From IMG/VR virus record IMGVR_UViG_3300032323_002909, positions 1-64,000 of that record: a DNA stretch of 64,000 nucleotides; one strand, written 5' to 3'. Position numbers and translations under genes: made by a program. The notes beneath the pieces were generated by a model. It did not search any database. It was not told where the DNA came from and worked only from the letters and a program-made list of their open reading frames with translations. The stretch is from a virus. Shown in pieces: positions 149-44,053 of this stretch. The stretch's first letter is position 1. Every line of letters starts with the position of its first letter.

Positions 149-868
149 ATGAGCGAAAAATTTAAAAGCGTAGGAGAGATGATGGGTTATTTCACAAAAC
201 AAGAAATGATCCAAGAGCGATTTGTAGAGAAGCTAATGACAGCATACCCACAGCTTTTCCCAAAGGATGCTGATGGCAAGCCTAGAGAGCCTGACTGTGG
301 TGTGTGGTGTCCAGTTGGATGGCAACCTATGGTGGAAACTTTGTGTGGTCATATTAATGATTATGTGGAGAACAACAAAACATGGATTCCAAAATATGTC
401 GCATACTATGCCGTGTGTAATTGGATTTATAATTTTTTGTGTATTGGAAGAATTATGAAGTATCTTTCTAAAACCATTGATCCTGTGGTGTATCCCCTTA
501 ATGGGTGTCTTCTAGCTAGTGAAGTCGAAAAGATTAGAAAAGCATCACCATTCAGATCGTGGTTGACTCGTCTTGTGTGGAAGTTGGATTCATTTTTAAA
601 ACCAATCAAAAGATTTACCGAGAAACCAATCCCACCAGTCACTATCGAACAAGTCAAATCCAAGTTCGGAACCCTTAGATTCTATTACAGTGGTGGTGAC
701 AAACAAATAAACGGAATGGTATCGTTTGCTGAAATTCTTTCATCAACTATATGTGAAATCACTGGGACTAAAGGGAATCTATGTATTCATCGGGGTTGGT
801 ACAAGACGTTGTGCGAAGAAAAGACGAAAGATTTGGGTTATGTGGAGTGTGGAAAAATTGATCAATGA
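149..868 (+). CDS. conserved phage hypothetical protein
   Basis: 239-aa ORF; QVKSKFGTLRFYY...CEITG motif recurrent in large phages; TTGACA-N16-TATAAT 6 nt upstream. Confidence 0.75.
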   Translation: MSEKFKSVGEMMGYFTKQEMIQERFVEKLMTAYPQLFPKDADGKPREPDCGVWCPVGWQPMVETLCGHINDYVENNKTWIPKYVAYYAVCNWIYNFLCIGRIMKYLSKTIDPVVYPLNGCLLASEVEKIRKASPFRSWLTRLVWKLDSFLKPIKRFTEKPIPPVTIEQVKSKFGTLRFYYSGGDKQINGMVSFAEILSSTICEITGTKGNLCIHRGWYKTLCEEKTKDLGYVECGKIDQ

Positions 869-1808
869 TATTTTTAAATTTTTCTTGTTTCCTCTTCATC
901 GCTACGAGAGGTTGTGGATCGTATAATAAATAGTATAGTTTTATCAGGTCTTTCTTTCTTGAAACCTGAATAATGTTGGTATGTCGTCTTTCAAAATTAC
1001 ACGAAAATATATCAATAGAATCAAAATAATTTTTAATGTCTTCTGCCATATTAGACTGACACGCTATGGTAAATCCACTAGAAGTTATACACCCATCGCC
1101 CTCAAATAACCCCAATATAAAAGCAGATTTAAATTTTTCATCTATTTTAGGCATATTTAAATTTTTGTATGTTTTGTTTATGGTAAGACCTAAATTTATC
1201 GCATCTTTATAAACTTTTCCCGATGTAATGTCCAAAGATGCTGCTCTGAGAGGGGTTTCGTATTTTTTATTGTTGATTGGGCTATGCATGTAACCACTAT
1301 TTTTCACAAAGTGAATTGGCTTATTAGTCTTTAAAAGATGGTGTTTCCAATTTTCAAGATAATCAATATCATCTTCTCTCAATCTAATCGCAATTAGATT
1401 GTTGTTTTTTGATATTGTGCCGTCAGCATATACAAGTCCCAAAAATTGAGCCTTTTCTTTGGTGTCTATAATTTCAAAAATTGATTCGTCTAAATCATAT
1501 TTTCGGTAGATCTTTCTCGTGAAAATAGAATACTTTTGTAATTGCTTGGTAATACAACTCTTACCGATGCCAGTTTTTTCTTGAATTTTTTCTATTGTCA
1601 GTCCTTGTTTGTAAAGATCACAAATTTCAGATGCTTTATTTTTGTCCAACCCAGACCCACGAAGCTCAACACCACCATCTTTTAATATTTTATAAATTGT
1701 ATTTGGCGACATTTTGAATTTTTTTTGTAATTCTGTTATTGTCATCGTCCTATTTAAATAGGCATTGCAGATAAAATCGTAGTGGTCTAAATTTTTAAAT
1801 TTTGTCAT
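768..1808 (-). CDS. free-standing LAGLIDADG homing endonuclease with N-terminal HTH repeats
   Basis: Two motifs FLGLVYADG and FILGLFEGDG; HTH-like N-terminus; TAAATA late-type motif upstream. Confidence 0.85.
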   Translation of the reverse strand: MTKFKNLDHYDFICNAYLNRTMTITELQKKFKMSPNTIYKILKDGGVELRGSGLDKNKASEICDLYKQGLTIEKIQEKTGIGKSCITKQLQKYSIFTRKIYRKYDLDESIFEIIDTKEKAQFLGLVYADGTISKNNNLIAIRLREDDIDYLENWKHHLLKTNKPIHFVKNSGYMHSPINNKKYETPLRAASLDITSGKVYKDAINLGLTINKTYKNLNMPKIDEKFKSAFILGLFEGDGCITSSGFTIACQSNMAEDIKNYFDSIDIFSCNFERRHTNIIQVSRKKDLIKLYYLLYDPQPLVAMKRKQEKFKNIIDQFFHTPHNPNLSSFLRTTSCTNPDEYIDSL

Positions 1809-1870: not shown

Positions 1871-2080
1871 ATGATTATTGATGGAACATTGGTGGTATCG
1901 TGGATTGCAGCTGTTGGCATGACTATTCTTATCGGGACAGGCATGTATCTTAGCATGCTAGACAAATATTATGAAGAACCTAGCATCAAGCATGGTCGCT
2001 TTTGGTTATGTCAAGGCATTTCTACGACTATAGCACTTGGTCTTTATTTAACGAAGATTGGAATTATTGTATGGCAGTAA
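1871..2080 (+). CDS. small membrane protein
   Basis: 69 aa, two hydrophobic segments. Confidence 0.6.
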   Translation: MIIDGTLVVSWIAAVGMTILIGTGMYLSMLDKYYEEPSIKHGRFWLCQGISTTIALGLYLTKIGIIVWQ

Positions 2081-2493
2081 AGACAAAACAAGTCATCGTG
2101 GTTCGCCGCGACTTAAAAATGAAACACGGTAAGATGGCGGCTCAAGTTGCACATGCAGCAATGAGCTTTCTTACTCGTGAAGGTCGGGTTGGTTGGCAAG
2201 CTGATATGCTCAACGATGTCTTTATGAATGATGACGACTCAATTGACAGGCACAATGGCGCAATACGTGATTGGCTTGCAAATAGTTTCACGAAAGTAGT
2301 TCTTGCTGTGGATAGTGAAGAAGAGTTGCGAGAGATTCTCTCAAAAGCAGAAGAATCTGGCATCATGGCGCATTTAGTTGTTGACAATGGTCGCACTGTG
2401 TTTAATAATATCCCCACCCCGACCTGCCTAGCACTTGGTCCTGATTGGAACGAGAACCTAGACGAGTTGGTGGGACATTTGAAGCTCTATTAA
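2071..2493 (+). CDS. pth2: peptidyl-tRNA hydrolase, Pth2 family
   Basis: KQVIVVRRDLKMKHGKMAAQVAHAA, KVVLAV, VVDNGRT, TCLALGP, VGHLKL motifs; start moved to ATG 2071. Confidence 0.9.
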   Translation: MAVKTKQVIVVRRDLKMKHGKMAAQVAHAAMSFLTREGRVGWQADMLNDVFMNDDDSIDRHNGAIRDWLANSFTKVVLAVDSEEELREILSKAEESGIMAHLVVDNGRTVFNNIPTPTCLALGPDWNENLDELVGHLKLY

Positions 2494-4846: not shown

Positions 4847-5146
4847 ATGAGTGGAGGACATTTTGAATATCAGCAATATCGTATCGAAGATATTGCAAGA
4901 GGCATTGAGGAACTCGTTGCGAGCAATGATGATGAATCATTAAACGAATGGGGTGATCGTCGTGGATACGGCTATAATCCAGAAACTATAGAAAAGTTCA
5001 AATTAGCAGTTGACACTTTGAGAATTGCCGCTACAATGGCACAACGAATCGATTGGCTCGTAAGTGGTGATGATGGTGAAGATAGCTTTCATCGTCGTTG
5101 GGATGAAGAATTAAAAGAACTAAATACAAAAAATGAAACTAATTAA
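4847..5146 (+). CDS. conserved phage hypothetical protein
   Basis: MSGGHFEY...RIDWLVSGDDGEDSF motif. Confidence 0.75.
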   Translation: MSGGHFEYQQYRIEDIARGIEELVASNDDESLNEWGDRRGYGYNPETIEKFKLAVDTLRIAATMAQRIDWLVSGDDGEDSFHRRWDEELKELNTKNETN

Positions 5147-5627
5147 AACACTAATACTAATGTTGATGTGTGCATCAGCATCTGCAACCAATGTCGCATA
5201 CAACGGTTCTGCTTTTCGCAGTGCTACGGTTTATGCAGATGGTAAATATACCTATAGCTACTCACTTGACTTGTGGAAGTTAACAAGTCAGGAGCTACAG
5301 AGTTTCAATGTATTTTGGTGCGGCGGCGCTACAGGTCATTCATTCAACAGCAGCATCGAATTTGACTCACTTGACAAGAGAGAAGATCAAGTTATCTTCT
5401 ATGACTTTGAAAGTGACGATGATGATGATGATGATGATGATGGAAACGAGACAATTACATTTTCGTTTAAGAGTATCAATGCTCCAGTTGATGGGATTGT
5501 AACTTACAAAGCGGGGGCGACTACATGGCAAACTGTCGCAAAAGTTCCATGTGCAGCTATACCCGAACCATCTTCCGCACTTCTTCTTGGATTATCCACC
5601 TTACTATTAACCTATCGTAGACGATGA
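5133..5627 (+). CDS. PEP-CTERM sorting-domain protein
   Basis: Signal peptide (ASA-SA) plus C-terminal IPEPSSALLLGLSTLLLTYRRR; poly-Asp tract. Confidence 0.85.
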   Translation: MKLIKTLILMLMCASASATNVAYNGSAFRSATVYADGKYTYSYSLDLWKLTSQELQSFNVFWCGGATGHSFNSSIEFDSLDKREDQVIFYDFESDDDDDDDDDGNETITFSFKSINAPVDGIVTYKAGATTWQTVAKVPCAAIPEPSSALLLGLSTLLLTYRRR

Positions 5628-5853: not shown

Positions 5854-6846
5854 ATGAAATTAGCAAGTATTGAAAAAATTATATCAGTAACACATCATGA
5901 TAACGCAGATGCTCTTGACATTGTTAAGGTCTTGGGTTACGAATGTATTGTGCAGCGTGGAACACATAAAGAAGGAGAAGAAGTAATTCTGATTCAACCT
6001 GATACTATTCTACCTGATGCACCTTGGAGCGAAACTTTCAAGGCACGTAGTAGTCGTGTCAAAGCGTGTAAATTGCGTGGACGTTGGAGTTTTGGTATCG
6101 TCATGCCCATTTTCGAATTGATACCATTAGATATTGTCGATATACTCAATGTCGGTGATGAAGTATCACATCTCATTGGTGTGACTAAATACGAACCACC
6201 ATTGCCAAAAGATTTGCAAGCAGCAGGTTATTTACCCAAAGGATTACCAAAGACCGATGAGGAGCGTTGGCAAAACATTGACAATATCCCATTTGGTTCG
6301 ATGTGTGATATCACTCTCAAATACGATGGCTCATCACTGACTGTATTTGCACGTAAGAACGAAGATGGAGAATGGGAAACAAGTATCTGCTCAAGATCAC
6401 TGTGTCTGAAAGATGATTGTCAAAATCAATACACGATTGCCGCAGAAAAATATGATCTTGTTAAAAAACTACTGGATTATTGTCAGAAGCACGATGTGAG
6501 TCTTGCTTTGCGTGGCGAACTTTATGGTTCTGGTATTCAAGGTCATGGCAAGAATCCGCATAGTAAATTACCATTGGGGTTTGCAGCGTATAACATTTAT
6601 AACATGGACACCTTCAAATATGAATCTCGTAATACACCACACCATTACACCAAAGTTTGCGAAGAGTTGGGTATTGAAACCGTTAAGATTCTTGAAAAAG
6701 ATGTTGTCTTCACAGAAGAACATATTCGCAAATACAGTGTTGATATTGATCAAATTGATGGTAAATCATACGAAGGTGTTGTCGTGAAGTTCCACGATGG
6801 AGGTAGCTTCAAAATTATCAATCTGAAATATGATGAAAGAAAATAA
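5854..6846 (+). CDS. ATP-dependent RNA ligase (DRB0094/Rnl2-like)
   Basis: N-terminal KLASIEKI...HDNADALD domain; PKTDEERWQN; motif I TLKYDGSS; RGELYG; EGVV; FKII. Confidence 0.88.
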   Translation: MKLASIEKIISVTHHDNADALDIVKVLGYECIVQRGTHKEGEEVILIQPDTILPDAPWSETFKARSSRVKACKLRGRWSFGIVMPIFELIPLDIVDILNVGDEVSHLIGVTKYEPPLPKDLQAAGYLPKGLPKTDEERWQNIDNIPFGSMCDITLKYDGSSLTVFARKNEDGEWETSICSRSLCLKDDCQNQYTIAAEKYDLVKKLLDYCQKHDVSLALRGELYGSGIQGHGKNPHSKLPLGFAAYNIYNMDTFKYESRNTPHHYTKVCEELGIETVKILEKDVVFTEEHIRKYSVDIDQIDGKSYEGVVVKFHDGGSFKIINLKYDERK

Positions 6847-20992: not shown

Positions 20993-21364
20993 TTACAATC
21001 TATTTATCAACCAACCGTTTTCCAAAGAAGAGTCCAGACCATAGTAATCTCCATCTAGAAAATCAAGTTTGACTGTTCCTTTTCTTGATATCTGGTGATC
21101 AGAGGGGAGGATTTTCACATTCATGTAAGCTTCTCCTTCGATTATGGCTTGTAATAAACGGTGGTGTCCATCAGCAACGATATATTTACTTTTATCTTTA
21201 TAAGCTGTTATGGGACTTTTATCAGAAGAATATTGTCCTTTACGTAAGGAATCAACGGCAACTTCCATATTGACTTTGTCTGGTAATAGATTTTCAATTG
21301 CTATTTTTTTCAAACCTGTTTGATTTGATTCCCTTAGACAATAATATTTTTGAAAAGTCAACAT
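20993..21364 (-). CDS. ParB/Srx-like domain protein
   Basis: PI...YIVADGHHRL motif; capsid-targeting-like N-terminus. Confidence 0.7.
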   Translation of the reverse strand: MLTFQKYYCLRESNQTGLKKIAIENLLPDKVNMEVAVDSLRKGQYSSDKSPITAYKDKSKYIVADGHHRLLQAIIEGEAYMNVKILPSDHQISRKGTVKLDFLDGDYYGLDSSLENGWLINRL

Positions 21365-21368
21365 ATGA

Positions 21369-21794
21369 TTATTTAATTGTTGTTATTTTATGACCTACGT
21401 GAATGTATCCGTTTTTTGAATCAACTGGATACATCCCTATTTTTGGAATGGAGATTGCAGGGAATTCTGCAATCAATTCTTCGCCCACGAAGAACTGTAA
21501 TTTATTGTCTCTGTGCTTTACCATAATAACAACATCGGGGTGTTTGTGTGGAAGTGATATTATTTCTTTATAGATTGGTTCATTGACAAAGGAAATCGCA
21601 TCTGATTCAAAATTTGAACCTGTGTATTTCTGACGATATATTGTTCCTGTCTTACCAAGTTTATATATAGATCCTCTTTCTGTTTCAAATTCATATACGG
21701 GATTTGCTTTATCTTGTTCTTTTTCTTTTCGTTGCATCAGCATCTGTTCTCGAAAGGATTCCCTTAGACAATAATATTTTTCGAAAGATATCAT
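21369..21794 (-). CDS. putative internal virion protein
   Basis: Start MISFEKYYCLRES shared with neighbour. Confidence 0.65.
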   Translation of the reverse strand: MISFEKYYCLRESFREQMLMQRKEKEQDKANPVYEFETERGSIYKLGKTGTIYRQKYTGSNFESDAISFVNEPIYKEIISLPHKHPDVVIMVKHRDNKLQFFVGEELIAEFPAISIPKIGMYPVDSKNGYIHVGHKITTIK

Positions 21795-21808
21795 AAGATT
21801 ATTTATAT

Positions 21809-22960
21809 TTATATTTGTTCTTGTCTCCATGAATAGTCTATTTTCTTTTCAGGTAGATCTTTTAATGGTATGTCTAGAAATGTCTTTTCTATATCTGCCA
21901 TTTCGTTTCTCATGGTTTCTTTGACGCTTGAGAAGATTTGTTTTAAGGAGTCCATATCTTTTCTACTCACTGTTCTATATAGGTTATAGTATGATTCATC
22001 TGTGCCATCTAGATATTGTTTGTTGAAATCCCATATTGGGTCATTTCCATAAGGATCTGTAGTTTGTCCATCTTCCATCATGTCTACGAATTTATTAAAT
22101 GTTCGGTCTATATAATAAATTTCATTTTTATTTCTGAGCATCTTTTCATTTTGTGATATTCGTAGTTTGATCAAGTCATCTACGTTTTTTAATTTAAATC
22201 TTTTGATAAGTTTTGCTATTATTTTTTTGGCATAGATAGATGGTTTGCTATGGCTTCTGCGTATTTCATTATTGATTTTATATCCTAGATTTAATCTTGC
22301 ATTGTAATTGGTATATTCACGATCAACATCTTTTAATTGGGTTAAAAATAATAATATATTTCTTATATCTGTTTTTTTGTAGAATTTGCCGTATCGTTTG
22401 TATGGTTCTGATATTTTTATTGTATCAGGAATATTTGGTTGGGGGTCTTTATTCGTGGAGAAATTATTATAACTGGTGTAATAAACGAAGGGGATACCAT
22501 CTCTTTTGCAGATGTCTTCTACTTCTTTTAAGGTGTTCATGTAGGAACTTTCTGGATTACACCATGTTATGACTTCCATTATATATTTTTTAGCGTTTGG
22601 TATTGTTGGTTGGTCTGAATAGATACGGTCTTCCATTTCGCTTATACCTTCACCACGATTTTTGATATTTGAATTTGACCAGTAATCAAATGCCTTGCCC
22701 TTGTGTCTAGTGTTCAAAAGATCACCATTTAATTTAAATATGACACCGCTGGGATTGTTTTCGGAATAATTGTTGAATTTGCTACGGGCGGTGGACATGT
22801 AGAATGTTTTTCCACTTTTGGAGGTATCGGTACCTGTCTCCATTCCCAACGAGAACATATTTGATTTCAATATTTTTAAGGGTTCTCTGGTATAGTGCCA
22901 AACTATACCTGTGATGGATTCGCAATAGAGTTCGAAGTATCTTTTGAAGTTTGGCAGCAT
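21809..22960 (-). CDS. putative internal virion protein, possible ADP-ribosyltransferase-like N-domain
   Basis: VWHYT...FYMSTARS...EMEDRI pattern; TAAATA 6 nt before ATG. Confidence 0.55.
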   Translation of the reverse strand: MLPNFKRYFELYCESITGIVWHYTREPLKILKSNMFSLGMETGTDTSKSGKTFYMSTARSKFNNYSENNPSGVIFKLNGDLLNTRHKGKAFDYWSNSNIKNRGEGISEMEDRIYSDQPTIPNAKKYIMEVITWCNPESSYMNTLKEVEDICKRDGIPFVYYTSYNNFSTNKDPQPNIPDTIKISEPYKRYGKFYKKTDIRNILLFLTQLKDVDREYTNYNARLNLGYKINNEIRRSHSKPSIYAKKIIAKLIKRFKLKNVDDLIKLRISQNEKMLRNKNEIYYIDRTFNKFVDMMEDGQTTDPYGNDPIWDFNKQYLDGTDESYYNLYRTVSRKDMDSLKQIFSSVKETMRNEMADIEKTFLDIPLKDLPEKKIDYSWRQEQI

Positions 22961-25109: not shown

Positions 25110-26624
25110 ATGAAGTCATTTAAAAATTTTTACACTGAACAATATATTGAGGATTTCGATCAAAATTGGCAGAAGGCTGTGAACTCGTCCGAAGAACTTC
25201 GGGTGGCATTGGATTTGATCAAAAATATTAAATCCAAACACCAAGGGGAGATTTATATCGTCGGTGGTGTTCCTAGAGATATTTTAATGGGTAATGATAT
25301 CGATGATGTGGACATGGCGACCAATATTCCATTTGAAAAGATTGCACAAGATTTTGATATTAGAAACATTTCAAAGAATGATTCTCAGCCAGTGTATACC
25401 ATTTTATGGAAAGGTTATAATTTTGATTTGGCAAAATTTAGAGAAGATTCTGGTGATCTTGGTAGACAAAACAACGTATCTACTGAAACGGATTCATTCG
25501 AAGCAGATACCCGTAGAAGAGACTTAACGATCAATTCTTTTGGACTTGATGAAAATGGTTCGATTGTCGATTATCAGGGCGGTCTAGAAGATCTTAAAAA
25601 CAAGATTGTTCGTGCTGTGGGTGATCCTAAGAAAAGATTTTTGGAAGATGCTACCAGAATTTTGCGGGTATTTCGATTTGCAGCTAAAATGGATTTTGAT
25701 ATTGAAGAGAATACCAAAAGAGCAGCCATCGAATTGAAGAAATTACTCCAAGATCCCAAGGCAATTTCGAAAGAAAGTATCTCAAAAGAATTTTACAAGT
25801 CTGCCAAAAGTGGAAAAACACTTGCAAACTTTTTGAAAAAATTACAGGACACTGGAATTCTACATGATATTCTTCCAGAGTTTACTAGCATGGAAGGCTT
25901 TGACCACGATCCCCAACACCACCCCGAAGGAGAGTCTCAAGTTCTGGGTCATATATATGAATGCTTGAGAGTTTCACCTTACACAGATCCTGTCATCAAT
26001 TTAGCAGTTCTGTTTCACGATTTCGGCAAAGCTACGACTCGTGGTAGTAAACCAAACGGATTTAGTAATTATTATGGGCATGAAGCAGCGGGTGTTCCCA
26101 TCGTGGAAAATATTTTCGAACGTTTACTCTTCACTGAATTATCTCCGAGTGATAAGAAAAATATTCTGAGCGCAGTGGGCAAGCATATGCTTGTGCATAA
26201 TCTCGATAAATTAAACATTAAAACATTGACGAAATTAATTCAAGATCCATCATGGGAAACTATCAAAGCTGTTGGATATTGCGATGAAGCATCAAGAGGA
26301 GATCAATTATTCAACAAACAAGAGTTTGAAGATAAAATAAAAAGAGCCGAAGAAAAAGTTTCCAATATTGGAGCCAATCAGGATGATACTCGTAAGCGAT
26401 TAAAACAATATTTCGATGGTAAAAAATTAATGGAATGGTTTCCTGTTCTCAAAAATGACAAGACCAAATTCAAAGATATTGTGGAGGCATTGAACGAATA
26501 CGTATTGGAAACTCTTAATAAAGGTAATACGCCCAACGATGATGAGATGCGAGAAATCGCAGGTGATATATTAGGGACTGGTAGATTCAATGAATCTTTC
26601 AAAAGATATTTAAAGTCTCTATAA
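25110..26624 (+). CDS. cca: CCA-adding tRNA nucleotidyltransferase with HD domain
   Basis: YIVGGVPRD, DVDMAT, RRDLTIN, EDATRILR, HHPEG, LFHDFGK motifs. Confidence 0.9.
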   Translation: MKSFKNFYTEQYIEDFDQNWQKAVNSSEELRVALDLIKNIKSKHQGEIYIVGGVPRDILMGNDIDDVDMATNIPFEKIAQDFDIRNISKNDSQPVYTILWKGYNFDLAKFREDSGDLGRQNNVSTETDSFEADTRRRDLTINSFGLDENGSIVDYQGGLEDLKNKIVRAVGDPKKRFLEDATRILRVFRFAAKMDFDIEENTKRAAIELKKLLQDPKAISKESISKEFYKSAKSGKTLANFLKKLQDTGILHDILPEFTSMEGFDHDPQHHPEGESQVLGHIYECLRVSPYTDPVINLAVLFHDFGKATTRGSKPNGFSNYYGHEAAGVPIVENIFERLLFTELSPSDKKNILSAVGKHMLVHNLDKLNIKTLTKLIQDPSWETIKAVGYCDEASRGDQLFNKQEFEDKIKRAEEKVSNIGANQDDTRKRLKQYFDGKKLMEWFPVLKNDKTKFKDIVEALNEYVLETLNKGNTPNDDEMREIAGDILGTGRFNESFKRYLKSL

Positions 26625-40562: not shown

Positions 40563-42068
40563 TTATAAATATGTCGAAACCGAACCAGGTGTAAACGCAG
40601 TACCGAGACCTTTAACGATGATCAAATGGTAGTAAAGATTAGCACCGAAAATGTTATTCACGATACCATAGCGGGTCATAAGACCAACGCGAGGCGCGAA
40701 ATCATTTGGGCCAATCGTTCTTTGCACCATAATGGGGATATATGGGCAGTAGATAATACCAGTGTCATAGTATTCAGAACCTTTGTAACCCAACAGAGCA
40801 TACTCAACACCATTTCCACCGTTAGGCGAATTCGTGTAGGAGTTATTGTTTCTGTAGAGAGTAGTGTTCTGAACTTCAGTCCGAGTATCACGATAAACCG
40901 TCCAGCGGCTACCAACAGTACCAACTTTCGACACACCTACGCCAGCCGTGGAAACGGTTCCACCAACTTCAAATACTTTGAAGTCAGGAAGCATTTCAAG
41001 GATGCTGCATACACGTGGGGTGGCGATAACAAAGTTAGCAGCACCTCTACGGTTACGAGCAGCCATACGACCACTTTCGATGAGCAAGCGTTGATAGAAG
41101 GTAAGATTTCTTTCAGCAGTCCAACGACCATCCGCACTAACAGGGCTCCAAATGGAGAAACCTGCGCCAGCCCCAGCATTGAAGGCTGTTTGGATCATGC
41201 GCATCACAACTTCACGGTCGATTTCGGCTTGGATCTCATACGACATAGCATTCGTAAGTTCACCATCGATATCGATACCGTTCATGTTTTTGATGTCTTG
41301 CTCCAATTCAACCGACCAACGAGTAGCCAATCTACGTGTTCCAGCAACAACAGCGGATTTGTCGAACTTCAACTCGATTTGAGGGATTTTGCCCGTCAAT
41401 TCGTAGTTATTCAGAAGTTCAGCAATACCACGGTCTTGATCTGCGAAGCTCCAATGTTCGGTATTACCCGAAAGGAAGTTCGAAGACGTGCCAGTAAAGC
41501 GTGTATCCAGAAGTTGATAACCAAGTTCGTCACTAGTGGAACTAGTGTCATTCAACGAGGGGAGTCCAGCAGCATCAGATCCAGTGTAGGCAGCTTTTAA
41601 TTGTTCTCCAAACGAAGAACCGTTACCACCACCAGAAGGCTTACCGTCGATACTACCATCGCTCAGAGTATCACCTTGGTAGGCGTAACGAAGAGCAAAA
41701 GCAAGACCAACAGGTCCACCCATAGGCTGAACACCAACGATTTCGTTGGAGATCAATTCAGGGAAAGTGCGTCGAATCATAGGAATCAGAATCTTTGGAA
41801 GACGAGCATCGCCAGTAGCATAGCTATCGCTGTTAGCGATGCCATTACCGACACTACCAGTCGCACCAAACACGCCACCAGAAGCAGCAATGTTAGATTC
41901 TTGAAAGCACCACTGTTCTTGGTTCTCCAAAAGCATAGCGGTCGTTTTGTAAACGTGCTCATTTTGGATAGCAGGAATCGAGTTCGAGCTATAGTCCAAA
42001 ACTTTGCGCCATTTATTAACGGCTTGTTGCATTTTTGAAGTGTTTATATCAGATTGTGGGATATTCAT
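40563..42068 (-). CDS. gp23: major capsid protein (T4 gp23-like)
   Basis: LLENQE, IRR.FP, VGVQPM.GP.GL.FALR, EI.AEI.RE, YCPY, F.P..G..TRYG. Confidence 0.97.
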   Translation of the reverse strand: MNIPQSDINTSKMQQAVNKWRKVLDYSSNSIPAIQNEHVYKTTAMLLENQEQWCFQESNIAASGGVFGATGSVGNGIANSDSYATGDARLPKILIPMIRRTFPELISNEIVGVQPMGGPVGLAFALRYAYQGDTLSDGSIDGKPSGGGNGSSFGEQLKAAYTGSDAAGLPSLNDTSSTSDELGYQLLDTRFTGTSSNFLSGNTEHWSFADQDRGIAELLNNYELTGKIPQIELKFDKSAVVAGTRRLATRWSVELEQDIKNMNGIDIDGELTNAMSYEIQAEIDREVVMRMIQTAFNAGAGAGFSIWSPVSADGRWTAERNLTFYQRLLIESGRMAARNRRGAANFVIATPRVCSILEMLPDFKVFEVGGTVSTAGVGVSKVGTVGSRWTVYRDTRTEVQNTTLYRNNNSYTNSPNGGNGVEYALLGYKGSEYYDTGIIYCPYIPIMVQRTIGPNDFAPRVGLMTRYGIVNNIFGANLYYHLIIVKGLGTAFTPGSVSTYL

Positions 42069-42127: not shown

Positions 42128-43012
42128 TTACTTTTTAAACGTCATCGATTCGAGAGCGCTTAAATAAGGATCGTTTTCCTCTACTTTATTACTTACTCTT
42201 TCCGTAATAATTTTTTGAGTTTTTACAAAATCAGGCTTGTGTTTGCGGTTTTGTAGAGCTTGCTCCTTAATGATTTCCAATTGCTTCTTCTCTTGATTTT
42301 CAAAAAGACGCACGGTGTAATCAAAGTTTTCTTTGATAAATTTAAGAGATTTATCAGAAAGTGCTTTTTGGACGAAGTTTTTCTTCGACTCAGGGAACTT
42401 AGAAGTTTTAGCTTCGAGGAAAAGTTTAACTTGTGCGTTGTTCTTTTCTTCGGTAAGCAAGTTCAGATTGTTTTTAAGTTCAGCATTTTCTTTGCGAAGT
42501 TGATCCATTTCAGTTTTACCTTCAATGATTGCACCAGACAAAGATTTGTCCATGAGTGCATAGTCAATCGAGAATACTTTACGAAGATTTTCCAGAACTT
42601 TGAAAGCGGTTTTATTTTTAACAGCCGTTTCTAAATCTTTTTTGGGAAAAGACTCAACCAAGAATGTGTCGAGATATTCACTAATAGATTCAGTAAGTTG
42701 TTTTTTGAACTTTACAAGATCACCTTGTTGTTCTCTTTCATACTTTTTAACAACTTTAACAAGTTTAGCAGTCTTGTCTCTATCAAAAGCTTCCATGAGT
42801 TTTTTCATTTTCACAGTGCGGTCGTTATCAAGCGTGACCATGAGAGTTTTCAATTTTTCAGCATAAACTTCATCCTGTTCTAAAAGTGCTGATTCTACTG
42901 CTAGATCAATTTTACTTTCTAACGACTCTTGGATGGCTTTGACCGATTCATCGCTCAGACCCAAATTTTTTTGAATTTCTTCAGAGAAAAGATTCTGTTT
43001 GTTTTTCTTCAT
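42128..43012 (-). CDS. gp22: prohead scaffold (gp22-like)
   Basis: Coiled-coil, L/I-x-E sites, directly upstream of gp23. Confidence 0.8.
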   Translation of the reverse strand: MKKNKQNLFSEEIQKNLGLSDESVKAIQESLESKIDLAVESALLEQDEVYAEKLKTLMVTLDNDRTVKMKKLMEAFDRDKTAKLVKVVKKYEREQQGDLVKFKKQLTESISEYLDTFLVESFPKKDLETAVKNKTAFKVLENLRKVFSIDYALMDKSLSGAIIEGKTEMDQLRKENAELKNNLNLLTEEKNNAQVKLFLEAKTSKFPESKKNFVQKALSDKSLKFIKENFDYTVRLFENQEKKQLEIIKEQALQNRKHKPDFVKTQKIITERVSNKVEENDPYLSALESMTFKK

Positions 43013-43047: not shown

Positions 43048-43374
43048 TTAGAATAAAGGTTTTTCAATTTCCTGAGAAATTAATTTTTGAAGTTTATTAT
43101 TGATAATATTTGAAAGATGTTTTTGAGCATCCGCATGATGTTCGCCCAAAATACATTCAACGAATTTAAAAATTTCTGAAGATTCTTTCACGCATTTTTT
43201 GCCTGTCTTTTCTTCATTATCCATATCAGCATCTTTCTTACGTGCATAAGAACCTTTACCTTTTTTTGGTTTTTCGACTTTGGTTGCAGGTGCGAATCTT
43301 TTACGCTCCTTTACTTTAGGAGCTTTGATAGTCACCTTTCCATCTTTTTTAAGATCTTTGAATTTTTTATTCAT
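43048..43374 (-). CDS. prohead core-like protein with N-terminal ArfA-like motif
   Basis: KVEKPKKGKGSYARK, then VKES, then helical core-like domain; between gp21 and gp22. Confidence 0.6.
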   Translation of the reverse strand: MNKKFKDLKKDGKVTIKAPKVKERKRFAPATKVEKPKKGKGSYARKKDADMDNEEKTGKKCVKESSEIFKFVECILGEHHADAQKHLSNIINNKLQKLISQEIEKPLF

Positions 43375-43390
43375 AATATTATTTATCTTA

Positions 43391-44053
43391 TTAAATCGAA
43401 TTTATGAAATTGATGATTTGTTGACGCAAATAATTATCCATATCTTTTCTTGGAAGTTTGCTAATACCTTTTTCAAAATTCTCATATACCTCTTCAAAAG
43501 AACCATCATGCTCGATGACGAAAGTTTTAGATTCCAAAATGCCATTCACAAATGCTTTTGGATAAGATGGATCTGCTACTGCATCGATAGCTACTAAGTG
43601 CATATTTTGCACGAGATTATAATCTCTATTTTCAGATAATTGACCAAGTGCTCTTGTTGACATACCAATTTTAACACCGTCATTTATAAGAGATCTTAAA
43701 ATTTGACCAGTTGGTGTAGATAAGACACGGGCTTTGCCTACAAAATAATCATCCACTTCAGTTAATTCTGTCACCAAATGACAAGCTCTTTCGAGATTAA
43801 CATCGGCACTAGCAGGGTGATTCAACTCCCCCATAGCTCTACCTGGAACAACCATTTCATTAATATATCTCTGAACTTCGCTTCTAGTATCATCCAACTT
43901 ATACATCCTTTTATTTTTGTTTACGATATTGCAACCAATAAATGGTCCTTTGACGTAAAGATTGGATGCGCTGTTTCTATTCGATTCCTCGCGAATAATT
44001 TCAAAGTTATCGAAAACGTCAGGATTTTCTGCTATCAGCTTTAATTTTAACAT
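43391..44053 (-). CDS. gp21: prohead protease (gp21-like)
   Basis: N.NKRMY, GELNHP, STP.G, GMSTRALG, D.VADPS. Confidence 0.95.
   Translation of the reverse strand: MLKLKLIAENPDVFDNFEIIREESNRNSASNLYVKGPFIGCNIVNKNKRMYKLDDTRSEVQRYINEMVVPGRAMGELNHPASADVNLERACHLVTELTEVDDYFVGKARVLSTPTGQILRSLINDGVKIGMSTRALGQLSENRDYNLVQNMHLVAIDAVADPSYPKAFVNGILESKTFVIEHDGSFEEVYENFEKGISKLPRKDMDNYLRQQIINFINSI

Follow-up and report, generated by a model that had tools for sequence, protein, structure and literature searches.

What is a ribosome-rescue motif doing in a protein encoded among the head genes of a phage? The question is raised by a 108-residue open reading frame (ORF) with a normal TAA stop, located on the minus strand at positions 43048-43374 of the IMG/VR virus record IMGVR_UViG_3300032323_002909. 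The record is ~150 kb long and about 73% complete, and its first 64 kb (64,000 nucleotides) is referred to here as the window. The original prediction, made from the DNA letters, described an ArfA-like rescue motif fused to a prohead core protein, with the gene lying between gp21 and gp22 and having a late promoter. The two stretches on which it relied, residues 27-47 and C61-V62-K63-E64/S65 (the slash marks a predicted cut), read in the ORF translation as they had been quoted, and the stretch of Escherichia coli ArfA placed beside them was correct. Using the ORF, its homologs and the conserved gene order, we describe the whole gene as encoding a head-core protein with an ArfA-tail module. The tail proved to be a real and conserved relative of the part of ArfA that occupies the mRNA channel, whereas rescue through RF2 found no support in the sequence, since the match with ArfA does not begin before R28 and the distal KH motif is replaced. 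The explanation that we tentatively prefer is that the module serves to dock on ribosomes.

The similarity was found by several comparisons. The Pfam family PF03889 (ArfA) matches residues 31-47 with an E-value of 4e-6 and 26.6 bits, against a curated gathering cut-off of 25.5 bits, and the match covers only profile positions 25-41 of 44. When the whole 150-kb record was searched in six frames with PF03889, this was the one place returned, with 27.9 bits. A PDB-wide search with a profile of 43 family members retrieved ArfA chains only, aligned to ArfA 28-44, and the profile-profile alignment of the phage family with ArfA (hhalign) gave a probability of 88.8% and an E-value of 2.5e-6, again beginning at R28; the ArfA side of this comparison is low in diversity because the homolog search returned close enterobacterial sequences only. 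At the level of single residues, 12 of the 15 positions between 32 and 46 (K-V-E-K-P-K-K-G-K-G-S-Y-A-R-K) are identical to E. coli ArfA 28-42. From Pfam, the PDB profile search and hhalign we define the ArfA-tail module as residues 31-47 (T-K-V-E-K-P-K-K-G-K-G-S-Y-A-R-K-K; 43234..43284, minus strand), corresponding to ArfA 27-43. These alignments argue that the phage tail is homologous to the ArfA tail, or else that it is a remarkably exact convergence. Another ArfA-like match, of 17.9 bits in the relative G004, was discarded as chance, since the open frame that contains it is intergenic and has no start codon.

The functional anatomy of ArfA allows the extent of the match to be interpreted. 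In ArfA, the recruitment and activation of RF2 depend on residues 1-14, the helix 15-24 (with A18) and F25; Q27-E30 is a strand that pairs with the RF2 beta-sheet, and the basic tail, including the K44-H45 motif, sits in the mRNA entry channel (PMC8012679). Neither the Pfam nor the hhalign alignment contains a counterpart of ArfA 1-27, that is, of the N-terminus, helix 15-24, A18 and F25. The position of the strand, which pairs with RF2 through its backbone, reads T-K-V-E in our protein and varies within the family (T-K-T-E, Q-K-H-K, N-T-H-K). Beyond the module the ArfA sequence stays basic and reaches the KH motif, whereas the phage protein has an acidic linker (residues 48-55, D-A-D-M-D-N-E-E; 43210..43233, minus strand; family consensus E-D-E-E). 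Because the RF2-activating N-terminus and the distal KH motif are both absent, the protein is, as judged from its sequence, an ArfA-tail module and not a complete ArfA. What it has in common with ArfA (YhdL; PF03889; PDB 5H5U, 5U4I, 5MGP, 5MDV, 7OJ0) is the basic tail, which in ArfA starts at the decoding centre and extends into the mRNA entry channel; in other respects the two differ, ArfA being a stand-alone factor of 55-72 residues made from a non-stop mRNA and the phage protein a late head protein of 108 residues with a normal stop codon.

Stand-alone ArfA genes also exist in cultured phages, where we located them by tblastn with E. coli ArfA. Salmonella phage Arash has a 74-residue ORF (gp99c; L139, 2417-2641, plus strand) that is annotated 'ribosomal protein L2' and lies beside tRNA genes, Pseudomonas phage pf16 has an unannotated ORF of 47 residues (L137, 2995-3138, plus strand) with a tblastn match to ArfA residues 4-42, and Pseudoalteromonas phage J2-1 has an ArfA ORF of 51 residues (ATN93434). 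The proteins of Arash and J2-1 cover positions 2-40 and 2-44 of the Pfam ArfA profile, the RF2-activating half included. Their tails resemble those of the head-core family: Arash and pf16 have the same E-K-P-K-K-G-K-G-S-Y, and J2-1 has the same three-residue G-K-G deletion as 11 family members. Unlike the gene studied here, these three phage-borne genes encode only 47-74 residues, are found among non-structural or tRNA genes and not in a head operon, and have no core-anchor helix. Phages of Alphaproteobacteria gave weaker ArfA matches; one of them is Citromicrobium phage RXM, in whose paper an ArfA gene is listed but not studied. Our search of the literature found no study of phage-encoded ArfA. 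Read as sequences, the full-length phage genes strengthen the case for homology and indicate that phages gain from ArfA function, and they suggest a source from which the tail module could have been taken. Set beside them, the head-core protein is seen to have retained the tail alone.

The conservation of the family supports the significance of the motif. A word-indexed search gave 47 close homologs, many of them already flagged PF03889, and an exhaustive profile search gave 737 representatives at E<=1e-3. In the alignment of close homologs the overall identity is ~50%, and the pattern G-K ... P-x-V-K-x-R-K-x-F-A-P-x-T-K ... P-K-K-G-K-G-S ... R is near-invariant. Of the 114 non-redundant members in which the block upstream of the tail is present, K-G-K-G-S-[YF] is exact in 83, one residue off in 16, deprived of G-K-G in 11 and otherwise different in 4; the original prediction had made its fate depend on conservation of KKGKGSY in orthologs, and most of these members keep the motif. 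Conservation this exact, in an arm that is Lys-rich and otherwise fluid, speaks for a specific target and not for bulk charge. The family is encoded at 76 IMG/VR loci, and the order gp21, family gene, gp22, gp23 is found in every one with enough flanking sequence; a search begun from gp22 recovered the same contigs.

In the other collections that we searched the family was not encountered. A search of 50,697 cultured phage records with the locus (blastn) and the protein (tblastn) returned nothing, and the gp23 of our record is only ~32% identical to cyanophage gp23; by these comparisons the lineage is one of uncultured T4-like phages. When 185,579 species genomes were scanned for the pattern, no relative turned up; the scan yielded neither a clue to the host nor a cellular counterpart of the arm as a whole. 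The tblastn search of plasmids gave one insignificant match, the ESM Atlas gave no usable match, and Foldseek against BFVD gave no match at E<=0.001, a search for which a 40-residue hairpin and a disordered arm are uninformative. We found no paper in the literature describing this family. The name 'arfA' does occur in one version of an enterococcal phage preprint; it is gone from the latest version and is unrelated.

How is the tail module built into the protein? An AlphaFold2 run with the family alignment leaves residues 1-65 without secondary structure and predicts two helices, 66-76 and 80-104, with a predicted local distance difference test score of about 90, in agreement with the helical domain that had been proposed to follow the V-K-E/S site. 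The protein can thus be divided into a basic disordered arm and a helical hairpin. The arm, the putative released cargo, comprises residues 1-64 (43183..43374, minus strand) and has 24 Lys and Arg, 10 Asp and Glu, an isoelectric point (pI) of 10.1 and a mass of 7.3 kDa. Within it, ahead of the tail module, lies the conserved upstream block of residues 12-32 (G-K ... P-x-V-K-x-R-K-x-F-A-P-x-T-K; 43279..43341, minus strand), which neither Pfam nor hhalign aligns to ArfA and which is predicted to be disordered as well. The C-terminal two-helix hairpin, ending in P-L-F (43051..43179, minus strand), is the putative core anchor.

The two parts behave differently in the relatives. The hairpin also occurs alone, in proteins of 48-100 residues, one of which, with 67 residues and no arm, is placed immediately before gp22; on sequence grounds it is the constant part of a large phage family. 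The arm lengthens or shortens by whole basic modules, which are Lys-rich blocks with acidic linkers between them, and proteins with added or swapped blocks reach about 300 residues. The alternative blocks include one that begins M-P-S-K-T-E-K-Q-K-K-F-F-G-A-V, one that begins M-P-L-K-K-G-K, one that contains R-H-P-K ... V-R-G-K-R and one with C-W-x-G-Y ... N-C-V. Because arm-less short relatives occupy the same locus, the arm looks like swappable cargo on a constant anchor. As a separate observation, the last of these blocks belongs to a basic mini-module (C-W-x-G-Y ... K-K-K-G-G-K-x-V-x-N-C-V) that recurs, as one copy or as tandem copies, in many further metagenomic proteins with lengths up to 900 residues (proteins P0113-P0120, P0131, P0153 and others), some with M-K-T-F-K-Q-F ... 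E leaders in front. This uncatalogued two-Cys module also looks capsid-associated.

Between the arm and the hairpin lies the putative prohead-protease site C-V-K-E/S (residues 61-65; 43180..43194, minus strand), which we recognize by its motif and its fixed position. The T4 protease gp21 cleaves after L/I-x-E (PMC9026906). In the window, C-hydrophobic-x-E-[SAG] is found in four ORFs only, namely two with N-terminal leaders resembling the T4 capsid-targeting sequence (CTS), gp23 (residues 54-58) and the protein studied here. The gp23 of relatives keeps C-[YFI]-x-E-[SA], and the gp22 of relatives has 6-9 hydrophobic-x-E-[SA] sites. A hydrophobic-x-E occupies the equivalent place in 157 of 185 non-redundant family members and leaves exactly 44 residues behind it in 110 of those 157; the residue after the predicted cut is S in 92 and N in 33. 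The first predicted helix begins at residue 66, one past S65, the predicted new N-terminus. The site noticed in the original prediction is accordingly shared by most relatives as a protease-type motif at a fixed position, and gp21 would be the enzyme that cuts it. We also considered V21-K22-E23 as a second cut site and rejected it as not conserved, with E in 52, D in 27 and Q in 26 relatives; the arm would therefore be released whole.

Comparison with the head proteins of T4 helps to place this architecture. T4 gp67 (PF17634) and gp68, which belong to the prohead core and are processed by gp21, are likewise small helical proteins whose genes lie beside those of gp21 and gp22 and which have a protease-type hydrophobic-x-E site. 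Residues 70-99 align weakly to gp67 residues 3-32 in hhalign (E 0.012-0.013) in a consistent register, the hairpin aligns to gp68 with E 0.53 and to the cyanophage protein at the equivalent position with E 0.14, and a search with Pfam GP67 gave no match at E<=1. In gp67, however, the helix is N-terminal and the tail acidic, whereas our protein has a C-terminal helix and a basic arm, and the T4 gene order is 67-68-21-22, whereas here the gene comes after gp21 and not before it. We would therefore call the hairpin gp67-like by position and pattern only, and not a proven homolog. The T4 internal proteins and Alt offer a second parallel, in that a targeting element is cut off by gp21 and a small basic protein is freed in the head. 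The T4 internal proteins are targeted by a 10-residue N-terminal CTS, whereas here the C-terminal hairpin would do the targeting; the N-terminus of our protein (M-N-K-K-F-K-D-L-K-K) does not have the CTS pattern of about 10 residues ending in hydrophobic-x-E. Processed T4 IPI is close in size to the 7.3-kDa arm.

The composite explanation that we put forward, as the most plausible of those considered and still a tentative one, is that of an arm anchored to the core and released by the protease, with an ArfA-tail module for docking on ribosomes. The C-terminal hairpin would most likely anchor the protein to the gp22 scaffold core during head assembly. A cut at hydrophobic-x-E before S or N would then free the 64-residue basic arm inside the capsid, as the conservation of the motif and the T4 precedent suggest. 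The cargo in the arm would be exchangeable, with none, one or several basic modules in the relatives and the ArfA-tail relative here. The most likely role of this arm would be to bind ribosomes with an empty mRNA channel, either once it has been ejected with the DNA or still inside the cell that produces the phage; after docking it could bring about release through another partner, block host rescue factors or act as a simple tether. Because the RF2-activating half of ArfA is missing, we regard it as a probable ribosome-docking module and not as a self-sufficient rescue factor. The T4 internal proteins stay in the head and are ejected (PMC9958956), and core-targeted T4 proteins such as IPI and Alt act on the host after ejection (PMC9958956, PMC9026906).

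The translation theme of this composite explanation fits other genes of the phage. The record encodes a Pth2-type peptidyl-tRNA hydrolase (E 6.8e-33; window 2002-2493, plus strand) and an RNA ligase with an OB domain (E 3.2e-15; window 5854-6846, plus strand), both near four tRNA genes (Glu, Ile, Leu, Met), which looks like a translation-maintenance gene set. A CCA-adding enzyme with PolyA_pol head and HD domains is also encoded (window 25110-26624, plus strand), and its N-terminus, M-K-S-F-K-N-F-Y-T-E, resembles the T4 CTS. Pth2 is present in 2 of the 4 complete relatives, and CCA-adding enzymes are present in all 4 (L133-L136), with similar leaders of the form M-x-x-F-x-x-[FLY]-[FY] ... hydrophobic-x-E, so that this tRNA-repair enzyme may be packaged in the capsid.

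A number of observations weigh against the docking explanation and have to be set beside it. The stretch that matches ArfA is only about 17 residues long, the V-E-K stretch equivalent to the RF2-contacting strand is variable within the family, the distal basic residues and the KH motif of the channel tail give way to an acidic stretch after R45-K46-K47, and ArfA shortened to 40 residues is inactive (PMC8012679). An RF-type GGQ hydrolase (RF-1 domain, PF00472), which could partner a tail-only protein, was looked for and found neither in the record nor in the 4 complete relatives. About 10% of members lack G-K-G. The alternative arm modules are all rich in Lys and have acidic linkers, which also fits a DNA-binding or purely electrostatic assembly role. 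Fragments of T4 gp67 and gp68 are believed to exit the prohead (PMC9958956), and a 7.3-kDa arm is not assured of being retained. Finally, ArfA itself is confined to Gammaproteobacteria and some Betaproteobacteria (PMC11633108).

These points make room for a different explanation, which survives best among the alternatives and which we rate as somewhat unlikely: the arm would be a peptide of the head interior that attaches by charge to the packaged DNA or to the acidic scaffold, serving condensation (the alternative named in the original prediction), neutralisation or core assembly, and its likeness to ArfA would reflect shared ancestry or convergence with no role at the ribosome. A pI of 10.1 and 24 Lys and Arg in 64 residues are what such a peptide would be expected to have; the Lys-rich character of every alternative module with its acidic linkers, the dispensability of the arm in short relatives and the members that have lost G-K-G agree with it; and T4 heads are known to hold basic internal proteins and acidic core peptides (PMC9026906). 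Bulk charge, however, leaves unexplained why ~20 positions, G, S, Y, P, F and A among them, are near-invariant and why E-K-P-K-K-G-K-G-S-Y is shared with full-length phage ArfA genes, and a charged peptide of no particular target gives no reason for the family profile to find only ArfA in the PDB.

A bolder form of the docking explanation can also be stated, which we consider unlikely. An aquatic T4-like lineage would pre-load its capsids with hundreds of ArfA-derived docking peptides, freed by the protease from their scaffold anchor, and the CCA-adding enzyme with its CTS-like leader might be co-loaded; both would be injected with the DNA and would act on host translation before phage gene expression.

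The rescue proposal itself appears improbable. Under it, the freed peptide would do the work of ArfA as soon as the cell is infected: it would bring RF2 (or RF1) to ribosomes stalled on cleaved mRNA and cause them to release their peptides. The tail of this peptide is homologous to that of ArfA, and the Pth2, RNA ligase and CCA-adding enzyme genes would suit a phage that maintains translation. The upstream block 12-32 could be a different RF-recruiting part, and the N-termini of BrfA and ArfT are in fact unrelated to that of ArfA (PMC8012679); this block, however, is predicted to be disordered, the residues equivalent to the strand vary, the KH motif is absent, and nothing in the protein matches ArfA 1-27 with helix 15-24, A18 and F25.

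The presence of a docking tail in a protein that has no activating part would also be expected of an inhibitor. By this account, which we hold to be quite improbable, the tail-only arm fills the vacant mRNA channel and excludes tmRNA-SmpB, ArfA, ArfB or another channel-probing host factor, in the newly infected cell or late in the producing cell. A synthetic SmpB-tail peptide inhibits trans-translation (cited in PMC8012679), and the gene would be expressed late, with a copy number that is probably high if T4 gp67 (about 340 copies per prohead, PMC9958956) is a guide; but blocked rescue would also trap ribosomes that the phage needs, and its other genes point to repair of the translation apparatus and not to sabotage. 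Lastly, that the match is a chance low-complexity resemblance without functional meaning, as its shortness, its K/G-rich composition and its score of 1.1 bits above the Pfam cut-off might suggest, is already very unlikely given that the motif is kept across hundreds of relatives otherwise ~50% identical, that the profile-profile E-value is 2.5e-6, that ArfA is the sole PDB family match and that the tail is identical to the tails of full-length phage ArfA genes.

ArfA has hitherto been regarded as a small cellular factor, and the full-length genes in cultured phages have gone unremarked; here its tail would be used as a portable module, fused to a capsid-core anchor by a phage lineage that is abundant and uncultured. 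Should the arm reach the ribosomes of the host, a ribosome ligand would be delivered with phage DNA, and ejected effectors would gain a new class. The arm would also be a counterpart in nature of the ribosome-binding tail peptides put forward as leads for antibiotics (PMC8012679). If capsid pre-loading and injection are true, it would be the first virion-delivered effector aimed at the ribosomal mRNA channel. Even if the arm binds DNA only, T4-like heads would have a second cargo-loading system, with a C-terminal anchor besides the N-terminal CTS, and this system would swap small basic modules freely.

The neighboring genes agree with the position that had been proposed for the gene. The start of the gene is 16 nt beyond the stop codon of gp21, the prohead protease and presumed processing enzyme (43391..44053, minus strand; Pfam Peptidase_S77 E 5.7e-28, PHROG head maturation protease E 1.7e-52). 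The putative gp22 scaffold, presumed binding partner of the hairpin, follows 35 nt downstream (42128..43012, minus strand). It is a helical protein of 294 residues directly before gp23 with no Pfam match, and we call it a putative gp22 from its position and from a weak collinear match to cyanophage gp22 (E 0.05) only. The major capsid protein gp23 (40563..42068, minus strand; Pfam Gp23 E 1.4e-82) has C-F-Q-E/S at residues 54-58, the end of its N-terminal propeptide region.

The proposed late promoter corresponds to a late-promoter-like ATAAATA (43380..43386, minus strand), recognized by its motif, which is located 5 nt before the ATG in the 16-nt gap after gp21. Both gp21 and gp22 have the same layout, TAAATA-N5-ATG, in front of them. 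Counted over the 150-kb record, TAAATA-N4-8-ATG is present 75 times, compared with ~34 times in shuffles (about 2-fold enrichment). Upstream of the late genes that start at 43012, 43374, 44053, 53529, 54530, 58562 and other positions on the minus strand, TAAATA lies 5-7 nt from the ATG and a Shine-Dalgarno sequence is missing; with transcription initiated as it is at the late promoters of T4, their mRNAs would be leaderless or nearly so.

CTS-like N-termini were also found on unrelated proteins of this phage: M-L-T-F-Q-K-Y-Y-C-L-R-E/S, I-S-F-E-K-Y-Y-C-L-R-E/S, M-L-P-N-F-K-R-Y-F-E-L-Y-C-E/S and M-I-S-F-K-Q-F-F-V-E. The ORFs with such leaders are located at window 20993-21364, 21369-21830 and 21809-22960 and at genome position 79029-79487, all on the minus strand, and the three in the window have no Pfam match. 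The phage probably has a set of capsid-targeted internal proteins, as far as these leaders indicate. In a related arm-less lineage, a protein of 459 residues with no Pfam match (L130, 1337-2716, plus strand) lies between gp21 and the 67-residue core protein and has the CTS-like start I-S-F-R-K-Y-F-Q-L-I-C-E/V; the head operon itself seems to have received cargo genes as insertions.

Two further features were noted. A homing endonuclease of the LAGLIDADG type, with helix-turn-helix domains, is encoded close to where the record begins (window 768-1808, minus strand). A protein of 164 residues (window 5133-5627, plus strand) has a weak C-terminal PEP-CTERM sorting motif with an E-value of 0.0027, which is below the cut-off; it is a possible hint at an exosortase-bearing host.

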